Sequence record: NC_019505.1
Strand: one strand, 5' to 3'
DNA: 64,000 bases
Origin: Escherichia phage wV7
Of the stretch, positions 11,009 through 16,124 are shown piece by piece (position 1 is the stretch's first letter; each line of letters begins with the position of its first letter). The position numbers were made by a program, and so were the translations under genes. A model generated the notes under the pieces. That model was not told the origin of the DNA. It did no database searches and was given only the letters and a program-made list of their open reading frames with translations.

Positions 11009-11599
11009 ATGCTCTTTACATTTTTTGATCCGATTGAATATGCGGCCAAAACGGTGAATAAAAACGCGCCGACTATTCCTATGACAGATATTTTTAGAAA
11101 CTATAAAGACTATTTTAAACGCGCTCTTGCGGGATACCGCTTACGTACTTATTATATCAAAGGTTCACCCCGCCCAGAAGAATTAGCAAATACTATATAT
11201 GGAAATCCGCAGTTGTATTGGGTTTTATTGATGTGTAATGATAACTATGATCCGTATTATGGATGGATTACTTCACAAGAAGCTGCTTATCAAGCATCTA
11301 TACAAAAATACAAAAACGTAGGTGGAGACCAAATAGTATATCATGTGAATGAGAACGGTGAAAAATTTTACAATTTAATATCATACGATGATAATCCATA
11401 TGTTTGGTATGATAAAGGCGATAAAGCTAAAAAATATCCTCAATATGAAGGAGCGCTTGCTGCTGTTAATACGTATGAAGCTGCTGTTCTTGAAAATGAA
11501 AAACTTCGTCAAATAAAAATAATAGCAAAATCAGACATCAATTCATTTATGAACGACCTTATACGTATAATGGAGAAATCTTATGGAAATGATAAGTAA
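11009..11599 (+). CDS. 53: gp53 baseplate wedge protein
   Basis: 196 aa, ATG with GGAGGG upstream, immediately before gene 5. Confidence 0.9.
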   Translation: MLFTFFDPIEYAAKTVNKNAPTIPMTDIFRNYKDYFKRALAGYRLRTYYIKGSPRPEELANTIYGNPQLYWVLLMCNDNYDPYYGWITSQEAAYQASIQKYKNVGGDQIVYHVNENGEKFYNLISYDDNPYVWYDKGDKAKKYPQYEGALAAVNTYEAAVLENEKLRQIKIIAKSDINSFMNDLIRIMEKSYGNDK

Positions 11600-13310
11600 T
11601 AACCTCAATTGGTTTGTTGGTGTTGTTGAAGATAGAATGGACCCATTGAAATTAGGTCGTGTTCGTGTTCGTGTTGTTGGTCTGCATCCACCTCAAAGAG
11701 CACAAGGTGATGTAATGGGTATTCCAACTGAAAAATTACCATGGATGTCAGTTATTCAACCTATAACTTCTGCAGCAATGTCTGGAATTGGAGGCTCCGT
11801 TACTGGACCGGTAGAAGGAACTAGAGTTTATGGTCATTTTTTAGACAAATGGAAAACCAACGGAATTGTTCTTGGCACATATGGTGGAATAGTTCGCGAA
11901 AAACCTAATAGACTTGAAGGATTTTCTGACCCAACTGGGCAATATCCTAGACGTTTAGGAAATGATACTAACGTACTAAACCAAGGCGGAGAAGTAGGAT
12001 ATGATTCGTCTTCTAACGTTATTCAAGATAGTAACTTAGACACTGCAATAAATCCTGATGATAGACCACTATCAGAGATTCCAACCGATGATAATCCAAA
12101 TATGTCAATGGCTGAAATGCTTCGCCGTGATGAAGGATTAAGACTAAAAGTTTATTGGGATACCGAAGGATATCCGACAATTGGTATTGGTCATCTTATC
12201 ATGAAGCAGCCAGTTCGTGATATGGCTCAAATTAATAAAGTTTTATCAAAACAAGTTGGTCGTGAAATTACTGGAAACCCAGGTTCTATTACAATGGAAG
12301 AGGCGACAGCTTTATTTGAGCGTGATTTGGCTGATATGCAACGTGACATTAAATCACATTCTAAAGTAGGACCAGTCTGGCAAGCTGTCAACCGTTCTCG
12401 TCAAATGGCGTTAGAAAATATGGCATTTCAGATGGGTGTTGGCGGTGTAGCTAAATTTAACACAATGTTAACTGCTATGTTAGCAGGAGATTGGGAAAAA
12501 GCATATAAAGCTGGTCGTGATTCGTTGTGGTATCAACAAACAAAAGGCCGTGCATCCCGTGTTACCATGATTATTCTTACCGGAAATTTGGAATCATATG
12601 GTATTGAAGTTAAAACACCAGCTAGGTCTTTGTCGGCAATGGCTGCTACTGTGGCGAAGTCTTCTGATCCAGCTGACCCTCCTATTCCAAATGACTCAAG
12701 AATTTTATTCAAAGAACCAGTTTCTTCATATAAAGGCGAATATCCGTATGTTCACACAATGGAAACTGAAAGCGGTCATATTCAGGAATTTGATGATACC
12801 CCTGGGCAAGAACGATATAGATTAGTTCATCCAACTGGAACTTATGAAGAAGTATCACCGTCAGGAAGAAGAACAAGAAAAACTGTCGATAATTTGTATG
12901 ATATAACCAACGCTGATGGTAATTTTTTGGTAGCCGGCGATAAAAAGACTAACGTCGGTGGATCAGAAATTTATTACAACATGGATAATCGTCTTCACCA
13001 AATAGATGGAAGCAATACAATATTTGTACGTGGCGATGAAACTAAGACGGTTGAAGGTAATGGAACTATCCTAGTTAAAGGTAATGTTACTATTGTAGTT
13101 GAAGGTAATGCTGACATTACAGTTAAAGGAGATGCTACCACTTTAGTTGAAGGAAATCAGACTAATACAGTAAATGGAAATCTTTCTTGGAAAGTTGCTG
13201 GGACAGTTGATTGGGACGTTGGTGGTGATTGGACAGAAAAAATGGCATCTATGAGTTCTATTTCATCTGGTCAATACACAATTGATGGATCGAGGATTGA
13301 CATTGGCTAA
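11583..13310 (+). CDS. 5: gp5 baseplate hub / cell-puncturing spike with tail lysozyme domain
   Basis: 575 aa; N-terminal OB-fold region, central T4-lysozyme-like domain, C-terminal VxGxxxxx beta-helix repeats (VEGNGTILVKGNVTIVVEGNADITVKGD). Confidence 0.95.
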   Translation: MEMISNNLNWFVGVVEDRMDPLKLGRVRVRVVGLHPPQRAQGDVMGIPTEKLPWMSVIQPITSAAMSGIGGSVTGPVEGTRVYGHFLDKWKTNGIVLGTYGGIVREKPNRLEGFSDPTGQYPRRLGNDTNVLNQGGEVGYDSSSNVIQDSNLDTAINPDDRPLSEIPTDDNPNMSMAEMLRRDEGLRLKVYWDTEGYPTIGIGHLIMKQPVRDMAQINKVLSKQVGREITGNPGSITMEEATALFERDLADMQRDIKSHSKVGPVWQAVNRSRQMALENMAFQMGVGGVAKFNTMLTAMLAGDWEKAYKAGRDSLWYQQTKGRASRVTMIILTGNLESYGIEVKTPARSLSAMAATVAKSSDPADPPIPNDSRILFKEPVSSYKGEYPYVHTMETESGHIQEFDDTPGQERYRLVHPTGTYEEVSPSGRRTRKTVDNLYDITNADGNFLVAGDKKTNVGGSEIYYNMDNRLHQIDGSNTIFVRGDETKTVEGNGTILVKGNVTIVVEGNADITVKGDATTLVEGNQTNTVNGNLSWKVAGTVDWDVGGDWTEKMASMSSISSGQYTIDGSRIDIG

Positions 13311-13344
13311 TATACTTCCAATGAGCGCTGATTTAGGAGAATCC

Positions 13345-13839
13345 ATGGAAGGTTCTTCTATCGACGTCACCTTTACCGCTCAATTAGAAACAGGTGAAAC
13401 GTTAGTATCTATAAATATAACTAGTTACGAAGAAACTCCTGGGGTTTTAGTAGAAGAAAATCGCTTATACGGAACATATGAATCTGTATTTGGTTTTGGA
13501 AATGACGCGTTGAAATATCGTTTAGGCGATGAATTTAAAACTGCTGCTTCATGGGAAGAACTTCCAACTGATTCTAATACTCAGTTGTATTTGTGGAAAG
13601 CTCCCCAAAACCTCCAGAAGACATTCACTTACGAAGTAACATTAATATATGACTATCAAGAACAAAGTGAATCTGGAGGTTCTGGCAGTAATTCTAGGTC
13701 ATCTTCTGATACTACTGAACCGACAGATCCTCCTGCTCCAGTAAGAAAAACTCTCGTTAAAAATTATACTAAAACTATAGTTGGAAATTGGAGTCGTTGG
13801 GCTAATAAATTGAGAAGCTATGTGTATGAGAGGCCATAA
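13345..13839 (+). CDS. 5.1: gp5.1-like hypothetical protein
   Basis: ORF between genes 5 and 5.4; track start is TTG; ATG at 13345 has AGGAG 5 nt upstream, but in-frame ATGs at 13285 and 13321 are possible. Confidence 0.5.
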
Positions 13840-14133
13840 ATGTCAGGATTAAGTTATGATAAGTGTGTTACTGCTGGCCATGAAGCGTGGCCTCCAACAG
13901 TTGTGAATGCTACACAAAGCAAAGTATTCACTGGAGGAATTGCTGTTCTAGTAGCAGGCGATCCAATTACAGAACATACAGAAATTAAAAAGCCATATGA
14001 AACACATGGCGGAGTGACACAACCTAGAACTTCTAAGGTATATGTCACTGGAAAGAAAGCTGTTCAAATGGCTGATCCAATATCATGCGGTGATACTGTG
14101 GCTCAGGCATCATCTAAAGTATTCATTAAATAG
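13840..14133 (+). CDS. 5.4: gp5.4 PAAR-repeat spike-tip protein
   Basis: 97 aa; sits directly after gene 5; sequence features ([24 protein letters not shown]) typical of PAAR proteins. Confidence 0.85.
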
Positions 14134-14141
14134 GATTTAAA

Positions 14142-16124
14142 ATGGCAAATACCCCTGTAAATTATCAATTAACAAGAACAGCAAATGCTATTCCCGAGAT
14201 ATTCGTCGGGGGTACGTTTGCTGAAATAAAACAAAACCTCATTGAATGGCTTAATGGCCAAAATGAATTTTTGGATTATGATTTTGAAGGCTCAAGATTA
14301 AACGTTCTGTGTGACCTTTTGGCTTATAATACGCTGTACATTCAGCAGTTTGGTAATGCTGCTGTGTATGAAAGCTTTATGCGTACTGCTAACTTACGAA
14401 GTTCAGTTGTTCAAGCTGCACAAGATAACGGATATTTACCTACTTCAAAATCCGCTGCGCAGACCGAAATTATGTTAACATGCACTGACGCATTGAATAG
14501 GAATTACATCACAATTCCTCGCGGAACTCGCTTTTTAGCATATGCAAAAGATACTTCTGTTAATCCATATAACTTCGTTTCTACCGAAGACGTTATTGCT
14601 ATTCGTGATAAAAATAACCAATATTTTCCACGTTTAAAATTGGCCCAGGGACGTATAGTAAGAACTGAAATCATTTATGATAAATTAACACCTATTATCA
14701 TTTATGATAAAAATATTGATAGAAACCAAGTTAAGCTGTATGTTGATGGAGCAGAATGGATTAACTGGACAAGAAAGTCAATGGTCCATGCTGGTTCTAC
14801 ATCAACAATTTACTACATGCGTGAAACTATTGATGGAAATACTGAATTTTATTTTGGTGAAGGTGAGATTTCCGTTAATGCGGCAGAAGGAGCATTGACC
14901 GCTAATTATATTGGAGGTCTTAAACCTACCCAGAACTCTACAATTGTTATTGAGTACATCAGTACTAACGGTGCAGATGCGAACGGCGCAGTCGGATTTT
15001 CGTATGCAGATACATTAACAAATATAACTGTCATCAATATTAATGAAAATCCAAACGACGACCCAGATTTTGTCGGAGCAGATGGCGGCGGTGATCCAGA
15101 AGATATTGAGCGTATTCGCGAATTAGGTACTATTAAACGCGAAACCCAGCAACGCTGCGTAACCGCAACTGATTATGATACATTTGTCTCAGAAAGATTT
15201 GGTTCTATTATTCAAGCTGTTCAGACTTTCACTGATTCTACTAAACCTGGGTATGCATTTATTGCTGCTAAACCTAAATCAGGATTGTATTTAACTACTG
15301 TACAGCGTGAAGATATTAAAAATTATCTCAAAGATTATAATTTAGCGCCTATTACACCGTCAATTATTTCTCCTAATTATCTTTTTATTAAGACTAATTT
15401 AAAAGTCACATATGCTTTAAATAAACTACAAGAATCCGAACAGTGGCTTGAAGGTCAAATAATTGATAAAATTGATCGTTATTATACAGAAGATGTAGAA
15501 ATTTTTAACTCATCTTTTGCCAAGTCTAAGATGTTAACTTACGTAGATGATGCAGATCATTCTATCATTGGTTCATCAGCGACAATTCAAATTGTTCGTG
15601 AAGTACAAAACTTCTATAAAACGCCTGAAGCAGGTATTAAATACAATAATCAAATAAAAGATCGTTCTATGGAATCTAATACGTTTTCATTTAATTCTGG
15701 ACGAAAGGTTGTAAATCCTGATACTGGTTTAGAAGAAGATGTATTATATGACGTTCGTATAGTATCAACAGACCGAGATTCTAAAGGAATTGGTAAAGTT
15801 ATTATTGGTCCATTTGCTTCTGGCGATGTTACAGAAAATGAAAACATTCAGCCGTATACAGGCAACGATTTTAACAAATTAGCAAATTCTGATGGACGCG
15901 ACAAATACTATGTTATCGGTGAAATAAACTATCCAGCCGATACAATTTATTGGAATATCGCTAAAATTAATTTAACATCTGAAAAATTTGAAGTCCAGAC
16001 TATTGAATTATATTCTGACCCGACCGATGATGTTATCTTTACTCGCGATGGTTCACTGATTGTATTTGAAAATGACTTACGTCCACAATACTTAACTATC
16101 GATTTGGAGCCTATATCACAATGA
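14142..16124 (+). CDS. 6: gp6 baseplate wedge protein
   Basis: 660 aa, same length and position as T4 gp6. Confidence 0.9.
   Translation: MANTPVNYQLTRTANAIPEIFVGGTFAEIKQNLIEWLNGQNEFLDYDFEGSRLNVLCDLLAYNTLYIQQFGNAAVYESFMRTANLRSSVVQAAQDNGYLPTSKSAAQTEIMLTCTDALNRNYITIPRGTRFLAYAKDTSVNPYNFVSTEDVIAIRDKNNQYFPRLKLAQGRIVRTEIIYDKLTPIIIYDKNIDRNQVKLYVDGAEWINWTRKSMVHAGSTSTIYYMRETIDGNTEFYFGEGEISVNAAEGALTANYIGGLKPTQNSTIVIEYISTNGADANGAVGFSYADTLTNITVININENPNDDPDFVGADGGGDPEDIERIRELGTIKRETQQRCVTATDYDTFVSERFGSIIQAVQTFTDSTKPGYAFIAAKPKSGLYLTTVQREDIKNYLKDYNLAPITPSIISPNYLFIKTNLKVTYALNKLQESEQWLEGQIIDKIDRYYTEDVEIFNSSFAKSKMLTYVDDADHSIIGSSATIQIVREVQNFYKTPEAGIKYNNQIKDRSMESNTFSFNSGRKVVNPDTGLEEDVLYDVRIVSTDRDSKGIGKVIIGPFASGDVTENENIQPYTGNDFNKLANSDGRDKYYVIGEINYPADTIYWNIAKINLTSEKFEVQTIELYSDPTDDVIFTRDGSLIVFENDLRPQYLTIDLEPISQ

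Follow-up and report, generated by a model that had tools for sequence, protein, structure and literature searches.

The gene 5 to gene 6 region and the spike tip

We report that the window (the whole 64,000-nucleotide stretch analysed, of Tequatrovirus type and here 100% identical in sequence to E. coli O157 typing phage 7) carries T4 genes 5, 5.1, 5.4 and 6 in that order, as judged from the ORF list and the RB32 and T4 annotation; the gene naming used in the first-pass annotation is right. The genes, and the signal in front of gene 5.4, are as follows.

11583..13310, + strand: gene 5, cell-puncturing spike and tail lysozyme, 575 aa (RB32/T4 annotation)
13282-13839, + strand: gene 5.1, whole ORF as read from the sequence
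13828..13833, + strand: GAGAGG, Shine-Dalgarno of gene 5.4 inside the end of 5.1, -5.8 kcal/mol with the 16S 3' end
13840..14133, + strand: gene 5.4, 97 aa, Pfam PAAR_motif, identical to the PDB 5iv5 and 4ku0 chains

The gene 5 product is 572/575 identical to T4 gp5 and ends in ..DGSRIDIG*, the gene itself ending in ATTGGCTAA with its TAA stop at 13308-13310. Gene 5.4 lies 530 nt downstream of this stop with only 5.1 between, and its start abuts the 5.1 stop (TAAATG). T4 has segC and 5.3 inserted after 5.1 and ahead of 5.4, whereas in the window 5.4 follows 5.1 directly, as in T2 and RB32. Among all annotated relatives having both genes together, the 5.1 stop abuts or overlaps the start of 5.4 (-1 to +2 nt), and the 5, 5.1 and 5.4 junctions are tight in all genera that keep these genes together. 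The arrangement is the well-known central-spike module of a T4-type phage, running from gene 5 through 5.1 and the 5.4 PAAR tip to gene 6, which is transcribed late as a single unit and in which every gene begins at, or within a few bases of, the preceding stop.

The 97-aa product of gene 5.4 had been taken for a PAAR-type protein capping the gp5 beta-helix. In the profile search set beforehand as the test of this identity, the fold was matched: Pfam PAAR_motif (PF05488) scored 39 bits against a gathering cut-off of 27 (E 9.4e-10, residues 13-88). Moreover, 97/97 residues are identical to T4 gp5.4 (PDB 4ku0, 5iv5, 9mkb, 9mog), which has the same place before gene 6 and the same PAAR_motif match; the 5iv5 chain, deposited as 'gp5.4, tip of the central spike', and the 4ku0 chain have the same sequence as the window's product. 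The PAAR His/His/His/Cys positions are present (GH(14)E, EH(46)T, TH(56)G and SC(83)G), and all four are kept in the 44% identical PAAR part of P0103, a natural fusion protein discussed below; in PAAR structures these residues are metal ligands near the apex. Gene 5.4 is thus shown to be T4 gp5.4, the single-copy PAAR cone on the gp5 beta-helix. Its function as the spike tip has been described (PMC12407873, PMC7600766), with a gp5C-beta:gp5.4 stoichiometry of 3:1 (PMC7600766), and both the identity and the solved structure of the spike tip are already known.

Start codon of gene 5.1

Three in-frame ATG candidates had been listed for gene 5.1, at 13285, 13321 and 13345, and only the last had been credited with a good Shine-Dalgarno. 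Reading of the sequence confirmed the three codons as well as the AGGAG at 13335-13339, 5 nt before ATG 13345; with Shine-Dalgarno strength expressed as computed duplex energy with the 16S 3' end, ATG 13345 reaches -7.3 kcal/mol, against -2.2 for ATG 13285 and -1.5 kcal/mol for ATG 13321. The ambiguity is real, and public records use four different starts: the equivalent of 13345 in T4 RefSeq, KP869105 and T2 LC348380, that of 13321 in RB32 RefSeq, that of 13285 in T2 PV958097 and most metagenome gene calls (184 aa), and in VR26 a TTG equivalent to 13297. Of the earlier reading, the ranking of ATG 13345 (the T4 RefSeq start) as the one with the best Shine-Dalgarno stands; overlooked were further in-frame TTG codons beside the three ATGs, notably TTG 13303-13305, where comparison puts the family-wide start. 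The candidates are:

13303..13839, + strand: gene 5.1 with the proposed TTG start, 178 codons plus TAA, 8-nt overlap with the gene 5 stop
13292..13296, + strand: GAGGA, Shine-Dalgarno-like motif, 6-nt spacer to TTG 13303, -5.9 kcal/mol
13285..13287, + strand: ATG candidate 1, inside gene 5, no Shine-Dalgarno, not conserved
13321..13323, + strand: ATG candidate 2, RB32 RefSeq start, no Shine-Dalgarno
13335..13347, + strand: AGGAG, 5-nt spacer and ATG candidate 3, T4 RefSeq start (164 aa), possible internal or alternative start

The N-terminus would read MDRGLTLANILPM.. from 13285, MSADLGE.. from 13321 and (M)EGSSIDVTF.. from 13345; the TTG 13303 form carries ANILPMSADLGE and runs as ..GESMEGSS.. 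across the 13345 Met. In phages of T4 type this TTG and the stop of gene 5 overlap (aTTGGCTAA), and the GAGGA pairing energy resembles those of genes 5 and 5.4. This motif arises from the gene 5 Ser-Arg codon pair TCG AGG, both members of which are rare in the window's long ORFs (AGG 3.2% of Arg, TCG 5.6% of Ser), and the pair is limited to TTG lineages, other genera having TCA CGT, TCT CGT, TCA CGA and similar. The AGGAG is encoded by a conserved L-G-E peptide (TTA GGA GAA).

Starts were compared across 50 loci, 34 outside the T4/VR26 type and 16 of T4/VR26 type. The codon aligned to 13303 is ATG in 34/34 loci of the other genera and TTG in 16/16 T4/VR26-type loci, and upstream of the aligned ATG an in-frame stop lies within 0-8 codons in 21 of the 34 and at 16-27 codons in the remaining 13/34. 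In every locus where gene 5 is adjacent, its stop lies -8 to +8 nt from this codon; in such loci of the other genera, the end of that stop falls anywhere from 8 nt ahead of the ATG to 1 nt inside it. A position after gene 5 with an overlapping or near stop and start, typical of the gp5.1 family, is found here if translation starts at TTG 13303. An alignment of 31 orthologues has a conserved N-terminus, M-A-x-I-L-P-x-x-T-x-L, upstream of the 13345-aligned Met, which is itself replaced by Q, I or S in several of them; across the loci the 13345-aligned codon is non-ATG in 22/50 (CAA, TCC, ATA, ATC, CGC, GCA, AGC, GAT or GTA), and present as ATG in all 16 of the TTG lineage.

Profile searches gave the same position. 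The first position of the PHROG 1168 profile corresponds to the TTG 13303 residue, the 178-aa form scoring 247.8 bits and the 164-aa form 228 (a gain of 20), and among 1.84 billion representatives searched, many homologues with independent gene calls had profile position 1 at their own residue 1. These comparisons point to an ancestral, family-wide 5.1 start 14 codons upstream of ATG 13345, at what is now TTG 13303. Relatives such as Kosakonia phage 305 carry a quasi-repeat, ATTGGCTAA/TGGCTGAA, and the T4-type junction looks as if this had collapsed by 7 nt, which would swap ATG for TTG with the 5.1 frame retained.

We therefore consider it probable (roughly 0.6) that gene 5.1 is translated from TTG 13303, giving a 178-aa protein, and not from the three ATGs. 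Ribosomes finishing gene 5 might re-initiate at TTG 13303, aided by the GAGGA 6 nt upstream, which is possible because the TTG overlaps the gene 5 stop. ATG 13345 with its AGGAG may additionally yield the shorter 164-aa form.

A start at ATG 13285 (184 aa) or at ATG 13321 (172 aa) is very improbable. The former is the first ATG of the ORF and is the choice of most automatic gene callers, including the calls in clusters with 79 and 860 member sequences, and the latter is the first ATG after the gene 5 stop. Both are nevertheless poor candidates on every test. Besides the weak pairing energies of both, a 98% identical relative (L023) does not have ATG 13285, its frame being closed by a stop 4 codons ahead of the TTG, and beyond the T4/VR26 type in-frame stops likewise leave no counterpart of this codon. 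With the 184-aa form, PHROG 1168 is matched only from residue 7 on, and the six extra residues add nothing to the family profile score. The codon aligned to ATG 13321 is non-ATG in 29/50 loci.

That the gene starts at ATG 13345, initiation having shifted there after loss of the ancestral ATG in the T4 lineage, is a more serious alternative that we regard as doubtful. The 14 upstream codons would then be an untranslated leader, similar among the phages only as AGGAG carriers and by recent divergence. This codon is ATG, and TTG is a weak initiator that T4 rarely uses; it also has the strongest Shine-Dalgarno of all candidates (-7.3 vs -5.9 kcal/mol for TTG 13303), is the curated start in the three records named above and is retained throughout the TTG lineage. 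Over the 14 codons the window and VR26 differ by three conservative amino-acid changes and no synonymous change, so that the TTG clade itself offers no positive sign of purifying selection. The 98% identical relative keeps the TTG without GAGGA, because a homing-endonuclease gene precedes it.

Against ATG 13345, its product would be without the family-wide conserved segment, which is predicted to form two strands of the fold, and the rare TCG AGG pair that makes GAGGA exactly 6 nt before the TTG would be left unexplained. The presence of Met and AGGAG is no proof of use, because Mosigvirus has the same Met and AGGAG with the upstream ATG still present. In the minimum-energy fold of 13270-13380 the AGGAGAA pairs with UUCUUCU, which also bears on the use of this site; the fold was no better than those of shuffled sequences (z -0.6), VR26 does not conserve the UUCUUCU partner, and the structure was discarded. 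We found no T4 N-terminal proteomics or ribosome profiling in the literature.

As things stand there is nothing unusual about the finding: neither gene is new, the PAAR structure has been solved and the choice of start is a detail of annotation. Should the TTG start be true, a uniform start could be given to the T4 reference and to most of the >1,200 homologous records, whose starts are inconsistent, and constructs for biochemistry should contain the 14 N-terminal residues predicted to be part of the fold.

Family and predicted architecture of gp5.1

Over the ORF from the TTG to the stop, gp5.1 is 174/178 identical to T4, and three of the four substitutions are in the last seven residues, beside the T4 segC insertion point. 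The T4 gene (PF26906 Phage_T4_Y07E; PHROG 1168) is thus near-identical, differing in that T4 RefSeq annotates the last 164 codons only. The 178-aa form matches PHROG 1168 with E 9.1e-74 over profile positions 1-159 of 160, and the PF26906 assignment is precomputed for all 45 homologues. The predicted parts are:

13303..13662, + strand: gp5.1 residues 1-120, predicted Ig-like beta-sandwich
13663..13740, + strand: residues ~121-146, Ser/Gly/Pro-rich linker of variable length
13741..13836, + strand: residues 147-178, conserved strand 147-160 and amphipathic helix 163-175

The protein is accordingly predicted to have an Ig-like sandwich joined by a flexible linker to a C-terminal strand and helix that are conserved. 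In the AlphaFold2 model, residues 3-6 and 13-15 of the N-terminal extension belong to beta-strands (pLDDT 81-87). The linker has pLDDT <50 for residues 125-137 and indel-rich columns in alignment A1, and in one homologue (P0086) it is replaced by ~400 aa. Residues 147-178 are the most conserved part of the family, with Y155, G161, N162, S164, W166, L170, R171, Y173 and V174 invariant in alignment A2.

The predicted Ig-like fold of gp5.1 is generic, and neither Foldseek against the PDB nor sequence and profile searches gave a gp5.1 relative among solved structures, nothing specific being found. A Pfam scan with E up to 1 returned only sub-threshold FMN_bind and DUF7154 for gp5.1, with PF26906 absent from the local results and no match to the T6SS PAAR/VgrG adaptor families (DUF4123, DUF1795/Eag, DUF2169). 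No toxin or enzyme domain was detectable in the window's gp5.1 or gp5.4, and literature searches on gene 5.1, Y07E and PF26906 found nothing usable.

With respect to signals within the gene, TATAAATA at 13410-13417 was considered as an internal late promoter. The octamer is there because the codons ATA-AAT-ATA encode a conserved I-N-I; no promoter is claimed, because the octamer is complete only with the preceding Ser codon TCT, which is patchy across genera. A scan for sigma-70 promoters and terminators gave counts at chance level.

Role of gp5.1 and comparison with other spike tips

The role of the 5.1 product had been described as unknown, in agreement with the literature (PMC12407873, PMC13611949); T4 has just three late-expressed ORFans, 5.1 among them (PMC12407873). 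Synteny, a matching genus distribution and one natural 5.1-PAAR fusion suggest that gp5.1 may be an accessory of the spike tip. Phage records hold 5.1 in 1239 and 5.4 in 1420 cases, with near-identical counts per host genus. The natural fusion, P0103, joins a gp5.1-like domain to the gp5.4-like PAAR with a Gly/Ser linker in place of the 5.1 C-terminal helix, and its gene lies between a gp5-like beta-helix end and a gp25-like gene; it is the only case, on a 1.3-kb contig from SRR29257534, and no other 5.1-PAAR fusion turned up in further searches. A published AlphaFold3 model puts gp5.1 on a side face of gp5.4 (PMC13611949).

We hold the accessory role to be plausible if tentative. The single gene that takes the place of both 5.1 and 5.4 in RB43-type phages and the T2 stocks with a restored 5.1 frame also speak for it; the lack of gp5.1 in solved baseplates, the formation of the gp5C-beta/gp5.4 complex in its absence, the single occurrence of the fusion, the Aeromonas phages with 5.4 apart from 5.1 and the generic fold speak against it. 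The Ig-like domain would be tethered by the flexible linker, with the C-terminal strand and helix docking on gp5.4, and the protein, being asymmetric and flexible, would be invisible in symmetrised cryo-EM maps; it may be useful for fitness and dispensable for plaque formation. The fuller version, in which gp5.1 is an unrecognised virion protein docked on gp5.4 that makes first contact with the outer membrane or LPS, and in which the T4 N-terminus is also annotated 14 residues short, appears rather questionable as a whole. On this version, virion gp5.1 would have escaped notice until now through its single copy, its flexibility and the averaging in symmetrised maps, and the T4 reference N-terminus would be too short because the TTG start overlaps the gene 5 stop.

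Alternatively, gp5.1 might not be a virion component and might instead act as a cytoplasmic hub/spike assembly factor that is released before baseplate completion, setting for example when or how the gp5 trimer receives its single gp5.4, or retaining gp5 until the hub is assembled. The absence of gp5.1 from all solved T4-type baseplate structures, with no density reported in T4 baseplate maps (PMC13611949), is consistent with this, as is the tight translational coupling of 5.1 to gene 5, seen in nearly all genera. Some Aeromonas phages keep 5.1 beside gene 5, with 5.4 placed elsewhere together with gene 6. Finally, 5.1 is dispensable in T2 stocks that carry a 5.1 frameshift, other T2 stocks having a nearby +1 change that restores the frame. 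However, gp5.1 is not needed for gp5C-beta and gp5.4 to form their 3:1 complex in E. coli (PMC7600766), the P0103 fusion would carry the gp5.1-like domain on the tip itself, and gp5.1 has no Pfam similarity to the known PAAR/VgrG adaptor families; we consider an assembly factor unlikely.

T4 is the reference system among contractile injection machines. Were gp5.1 located on the PAAR tip, the description of what T4 first presents to the host envelope would be incomplete, and gp5.1 might be involved in the LPS-dependent phenotype recently reported for gp5.4 mutants.

Among comparable systems, T6SS and eCIS PAAR proteins with N- or C-terminal extension domains were reportedly described by Shneider et al. 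in 2013. Their layout matches that of P0103, where the gp5.1-like domain is N-terminal to the PAAR, whereas the window has two separate genes and any association would be non-covalent. That a PAAR cone on a trimeric beta-helical spike can bear extra domains has been described (PMC8651086).

RB43-type phages have a single 690-aa gene (ORF205w) in place of 5.1 and 5.4 (see also PMC12407873); gp5.1- or PAAR-like sequence was looked for inside ORF205w and rejected (hhalign probability 0.1% for gp5.1, BLASTP E >1 for gp5.4). Phage P1 UpfB/UpfC and RB43-type ORF205w / Helios gp203 are likewise extra proteins encoded directly after the spike gene, and tip decoration has been proposed or shown for them (PMC13611949, PMC12407873). 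UpfB and ORF205w are largely alpha-helical, whereas gp5.1 is predicted to be a beta-sandwich; P1 UpfC (PDB 9vyi) is a PAAR relative of gp5.4 (E 1.8e-7).

Candidate starts of gene 5.1

A fourth candidate, TTG 13303, offers the best resolution of the start ambiguity in wV7 gene 5.1 and is the useful addition to the three in-frame ATGs (13285, 13321 and 13345) listed in the first-pass annotation. As stated there, only ATG 13345 has a good Shine-Dalgarno sequence, AGGAG at 13335-13339 with a spacer of 5 nt; its pairing energy with the 16S 3' end is -7.3 kcal/mol vs -2.2 (13285) and -1.5 (13321). In our estimate, the probability that TTG 13303 functions as a start, either by itself or alongside 13345, is roughly 0.6. 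Initiation there implies a 178-aa gp5.1, and the T4 reference annotation would miss its first 14 residues. The gene order 5, 5.1, 5.4, 6 agrees with the RB32 and T4 annotations:

11583-13310, gene 5 (cell-puncturing spike/tail lysozyme, 575 aa)
13282-13839, 5.1 open reading frame
13840-14133, gene 5.4 (PAAR spike tip, 97 aa)
14142-16124, gene 6

Public records dispute the 5.1 start: the 13345 equivalent is used in the T4 RefSeq, KP869105 and T2 LC348380, the 13321 equivalent in the RB32 RefSeq, the 13285 equivalent in T2 PV958097 and large metagenomic clusters of 184 aa, and a TTG equivalent to 13297 in VR26. For T4, we found no proteomic or ribosome-profiling data on the 5.1 start in the literature; the TTG start is open to simple experiments.

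Alignment of 31 gp5.1 orthologues (44-95% identity) revealed a conserved M-A-x-I-L-P-x-x-T-x-L-x-x-x preceding the 13345-aligned Met, which is itself replaced by Q, I or S in several of them. We also compared the DNA of 50 loci that represent at least 13 genera (including Mosig-, Kanagawa-, Moon-, Teguna-, Jiaoda-, Gualtar-, Biquarta-, Mylas- and Ishigurovirus, an Acinetobacter phage and others), placing the candidate codons through stop-to-stop alignment. The codon aligned with 13303 is ATG in all 34 loci outside the T4/VR26 type, where the nearest upstream in-frame stop lies 0-8 (21 loci) or 16-27 (13 loci) codons away, and TTG in 16/16 loci of the Tequatrovirus and Gaprivervirus type. The Met aligned with 13345 is absent in 22 and that aligned with 13321 in 29 of the 50 loci. 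The family-wide start therefore lies 14 codons before that of the T4 RefSeq, at the codon that reads TTG 13303 in the window. Loci not of the T4/VR26 type lack any counterpart of ATG 13285, which is missing even from a 98%-identical relative (L023). We regard a start at 13285 or 13321 as highly improbable.

Profile and structure predictions are consistent with this. The PHROG 1168 profile of the gp5.1 family starts exactly at the TTG 13303 residue and scores 228, 234.7, 247.8 and 245.1 bits against the 164-, 172-, 178- and 184-aa versions (starts 13345, 13321, 13303 and 13285), the match of the longest beginning only at its residue 7. Searching 1.84 billion representatives with a gp5.1 profile gave just 60 clusters, a small family limited to T4-like phages, and many of these clusters align their own residue 1 to profile position 1. 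In an AlphaFold2 model (23-sequence alignment; mean pLDDT 83, pTM 0.66) residues 3-6 and 13-15 form beta-strands (pLDDT 81-87), and the N-terminal extension is thus predicted to be part of the fold.

Signals at TTG 13303 and their possible origin

The gene 5 stop and TTG 13303 share nucleotides: the junction reads ATT-GGC-TAA in the frame of gene 5 and A-TTG-GCT-AA in that of 5.1. This layout suits termination and re-initiation; in other genera with an adjacent gene 5, its stop ends from 8 nt before the ATG to 1 nt inside it. GAGGA (13292-13296) precedes the TTG by 6 nt and its pairing energy, -5.9 kcal/mol, is close to those of genes 5 (-6.4) and 5.4 (-5.8). This motif derives from the Ser-Arg codons of the conserved gp5 C-terminus DGSRIDIG, which read TCG AGG in the TTG lineages alone; in those with ATG they are TCA CGT, TCT CGT, TCA CGA, AGC CGT, TCT AGA or, in Kanagawavirus, AGC AGG. 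Because AGG and TCG are rare in the long open reading frames of the window (3.2% of Arg and 5.6% of Ser codons), the pair is unexpected unless the motif was selected, an argument that was noticed post hoc and counts as support, not proof. Two lineages in which the ATG lies farther from the gene 5 stop carry a GAGG that spans this stop (TGAGG), in line with this reasoning.

The TTG might have arisen by a small deletion. Kosakonia phage 305 has ATTGGCTAATGGCTGAAATACTTCC and the window ATTGGCTAATATACTTCC, which differs only by lacking the 7 nt GGCTGAA. If the quasi-repeat TGGCTAA/TGGCTGA collapsed, this would delete the ATG in the T4-type lineage, whereupon gene 5's own ..TTGGCTAA would replace it with the 5.1 frame kept.

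We consider it rather unlikely that 13345 is the sole start. Several observations speak against the TTG start. Its Shine-Dalgarno sequence is stronger than that of TTG 13303, and ATG 13345 is found in all TTG-lineage loci. TTG is a weak initiator. When the window is compared with VR26, the 14 codons that precede ATG 13345 show three conservative replacements and zero silent changes, and hence give no positive sign of purifying selection inside the TTG clade. Finally, L023 retains the TTGGCTAA overlap, with the stop of an inserted endonuclease-like gene, and lacks GAGGA.

Around ATG 13345, AGGAGAA can pair with UUCUUCU (13335-13368), with the ATG in the loop, which would hide its Shine-Dalgarno sequence. 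As a masking structure this fold was rejected, being no better than shuffled sequence and losing its pairing in VR26. Gene 5.1 also contains, beyond every candidate start, a perfect T4 late-promoter consensus, TATAAATA (13410-13417, + strand). Transcripts begun there would code for 5.4 and gene 6, not 5.1. Conservation of the consensus among genera is patchy and is accounted for by the codons of I-N-I together with TCT for Ser.

Variation at the locus

A 1-kb query around 5.1/5.4 matches E. coli O157 typing phage 7 at 100% identity and approximately 490 further Tequatrovirus genomes at 95-99%. Relative to T4, identities are 572/575 (gp5), 174/178 (gp5.1) and 97/97 (gp5.4).

T2 LC348380, MH751506 and AP018813 and the closely related phage SV76 gave a 1000-nt match instead of 1001 nt, while T2 PV958097 and PV648363/4 matched over the full 1001 nt; LC348380 and PV958097 were read directly and the other records judged by match length. 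The differences are located as follows:

13570-13585, T2 difference site (GATTCTAATACTCAG; around position 672 in the T2 loci L053 and L054)

LC348380 has GATTCTATACT where the window has GATTCTAATACT, a 1-nt deletion that shortens 5.1 to 97 annotated codons and abolishes its coupling to 5.4. PV958097 reads GATTTCTATACT, with an additional T four bases upstream of that deletion, which restores the frame and changes SN to FY. These may be a natural knock-out and its pseudo-reversion, or sequencing differences. Unless they are sequencing errors, propagation does not require 5.1, yet a second change that brings back the frame became fixed; this recalls the reported status of gp5.4 as "non-essential but useful".

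The spike module is a hotspot of homing-endonuclease genes, of which the window has none. L023 carries a 288-aa seg-like gene between 5 and 5.1 (1642-2508) that re-creates the ATTGGCTAA end, and VR26 has segA between 5.4 and 6 (L004 1989-2666). T4 differs from the window, T2 and RB32 in that inserted segC and 5.3 separate 5.1 from 5.4 (L003 4197-4792); three of the four gp5.1 differences between the window and T4 adjoin the segC insertion point. Within gene 5, small minus-strand open reading frames occupy the positions of T4 repEB and repEA:

11605-11742 (-), repEB position
12709-12876 (-), repEA position

The equivalent of T4 oriE is at about 12979, just downstream of these, and the window thus carries the oriE region. 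Vibrio phage nt-1 has two neighbouring 5.1 copies (L012 1162-2172; locus tags 00390 and 00001), identical from about residue 24 with different N-termini, probably a join artefact in the deposited assembly and not a genuine duplication.

gp5.1, gp5.4 and the spike tip

The predicted gp5.1 comprises an Ig-like sandwich (residues 1-120), a Ser/Gly/Pro-rich linker of low confidence and variable length (pLDDT <50 at 125-137), and a long strand (147-160) plus an amphipathic helix (163-175). Conservation in the family is highest at residues of this strand/helix part (G161, N162, S164, W166, L170, R171 and Y173). In a 600-aa homologue (P0086), the short linker has given way to approximately 400 residues, with the N-terminal domain and the C-terminal ..GSWDIWAKGFRDY.. 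motif both retained, which suggests that each end is a functional module of its own.

Several pieces of circumstantial evidence connect gp5.1 with the PAAR tip. Wherever 5.1 and 5.4 sit together, the 5.1 stop adjoins or overlaps the 5.4 start; phage records number 1239 for gp5.1 and 1420 for gp5.4, with almost equal counts per host genus; and RB43-type phages have neither, a single unrelated 690-aa gene standing instead (see also PMC12407873). Moreover, a 265-aa protein (P0103; L052 173-970, Logan SRR29257534) fuses a gp5.1-like domain (hhalign probability 89.7%, E 1.9e-6; precomputed match to the gp5.1 profile PF26906) to a gp5.4-like PAAR domain (44% identity, E 2e-22; Pfam PAAR E 1.1e-10). 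The gene is flanked by a gp5-like beta-helix end (..DGSLIYIG*, TAATG overlap) on one side and a gp25-like gene on the other. A Gly/Ser linker stands where gp5.1 has its C-terminal helix, with no helix remnant seen in the other frames of the gene, as expected if gp5.1 normally docks on gp5.4 through this helix. P0103 is a singleton (one 1.3-kb contig from one sample), and additional searches gave no second 5.1-PAAR fusion. A similar idea, termed speculation there, was derived from an AlphaFold3 model in a 2026 paper (PMC13611949).

Our tentative reading is that gp5.1 is a spike-tip accessory. Against a role in the virion, density or a chain for gp5.1 has not been reported, the gp5 beta-helix part (gp5C-beta) and gp5.4 assemble without it (PMC7600766), and some Aeromonas phages keep 5.1 beside gene 5 with 5.4 elsewhere, next to gene 6. 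A non-virion assembly role we regard as rather improbable. The gp5.1-tip link, too, is open to simple experiments.

The identity of gp5.4 is settled and was already known. The first-pass annotation placed a PAAR protein after 5.1 and named a profile search as the check; the 5.4 product withstood it, matching Pfam PAAR_motif with 39 bits (threshold 27). Its sequence is also that of the 5iv5 and 4ku0 chains that carry the label "gp5.4, tip of the central spike". That annotation was thus correct in both its observation and its PAAR interpretation, but concerned known genes. A recent preprint likewise shows gp5.4 to be the T4 spike tip, and the gp5C-beta/gp5.4 stoichiometry is 3:1 (PMC7600766). 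Homologues are commonly labelled "phospholipase" or "PAAR motif of membran proteins" in many GenBank records, and PDB 9f4b also names a gp5.4-type protein "phospholipase"; none of the profile or structure matches obtained for gp5.4 supports that name, which looks like a propagated misnomer.
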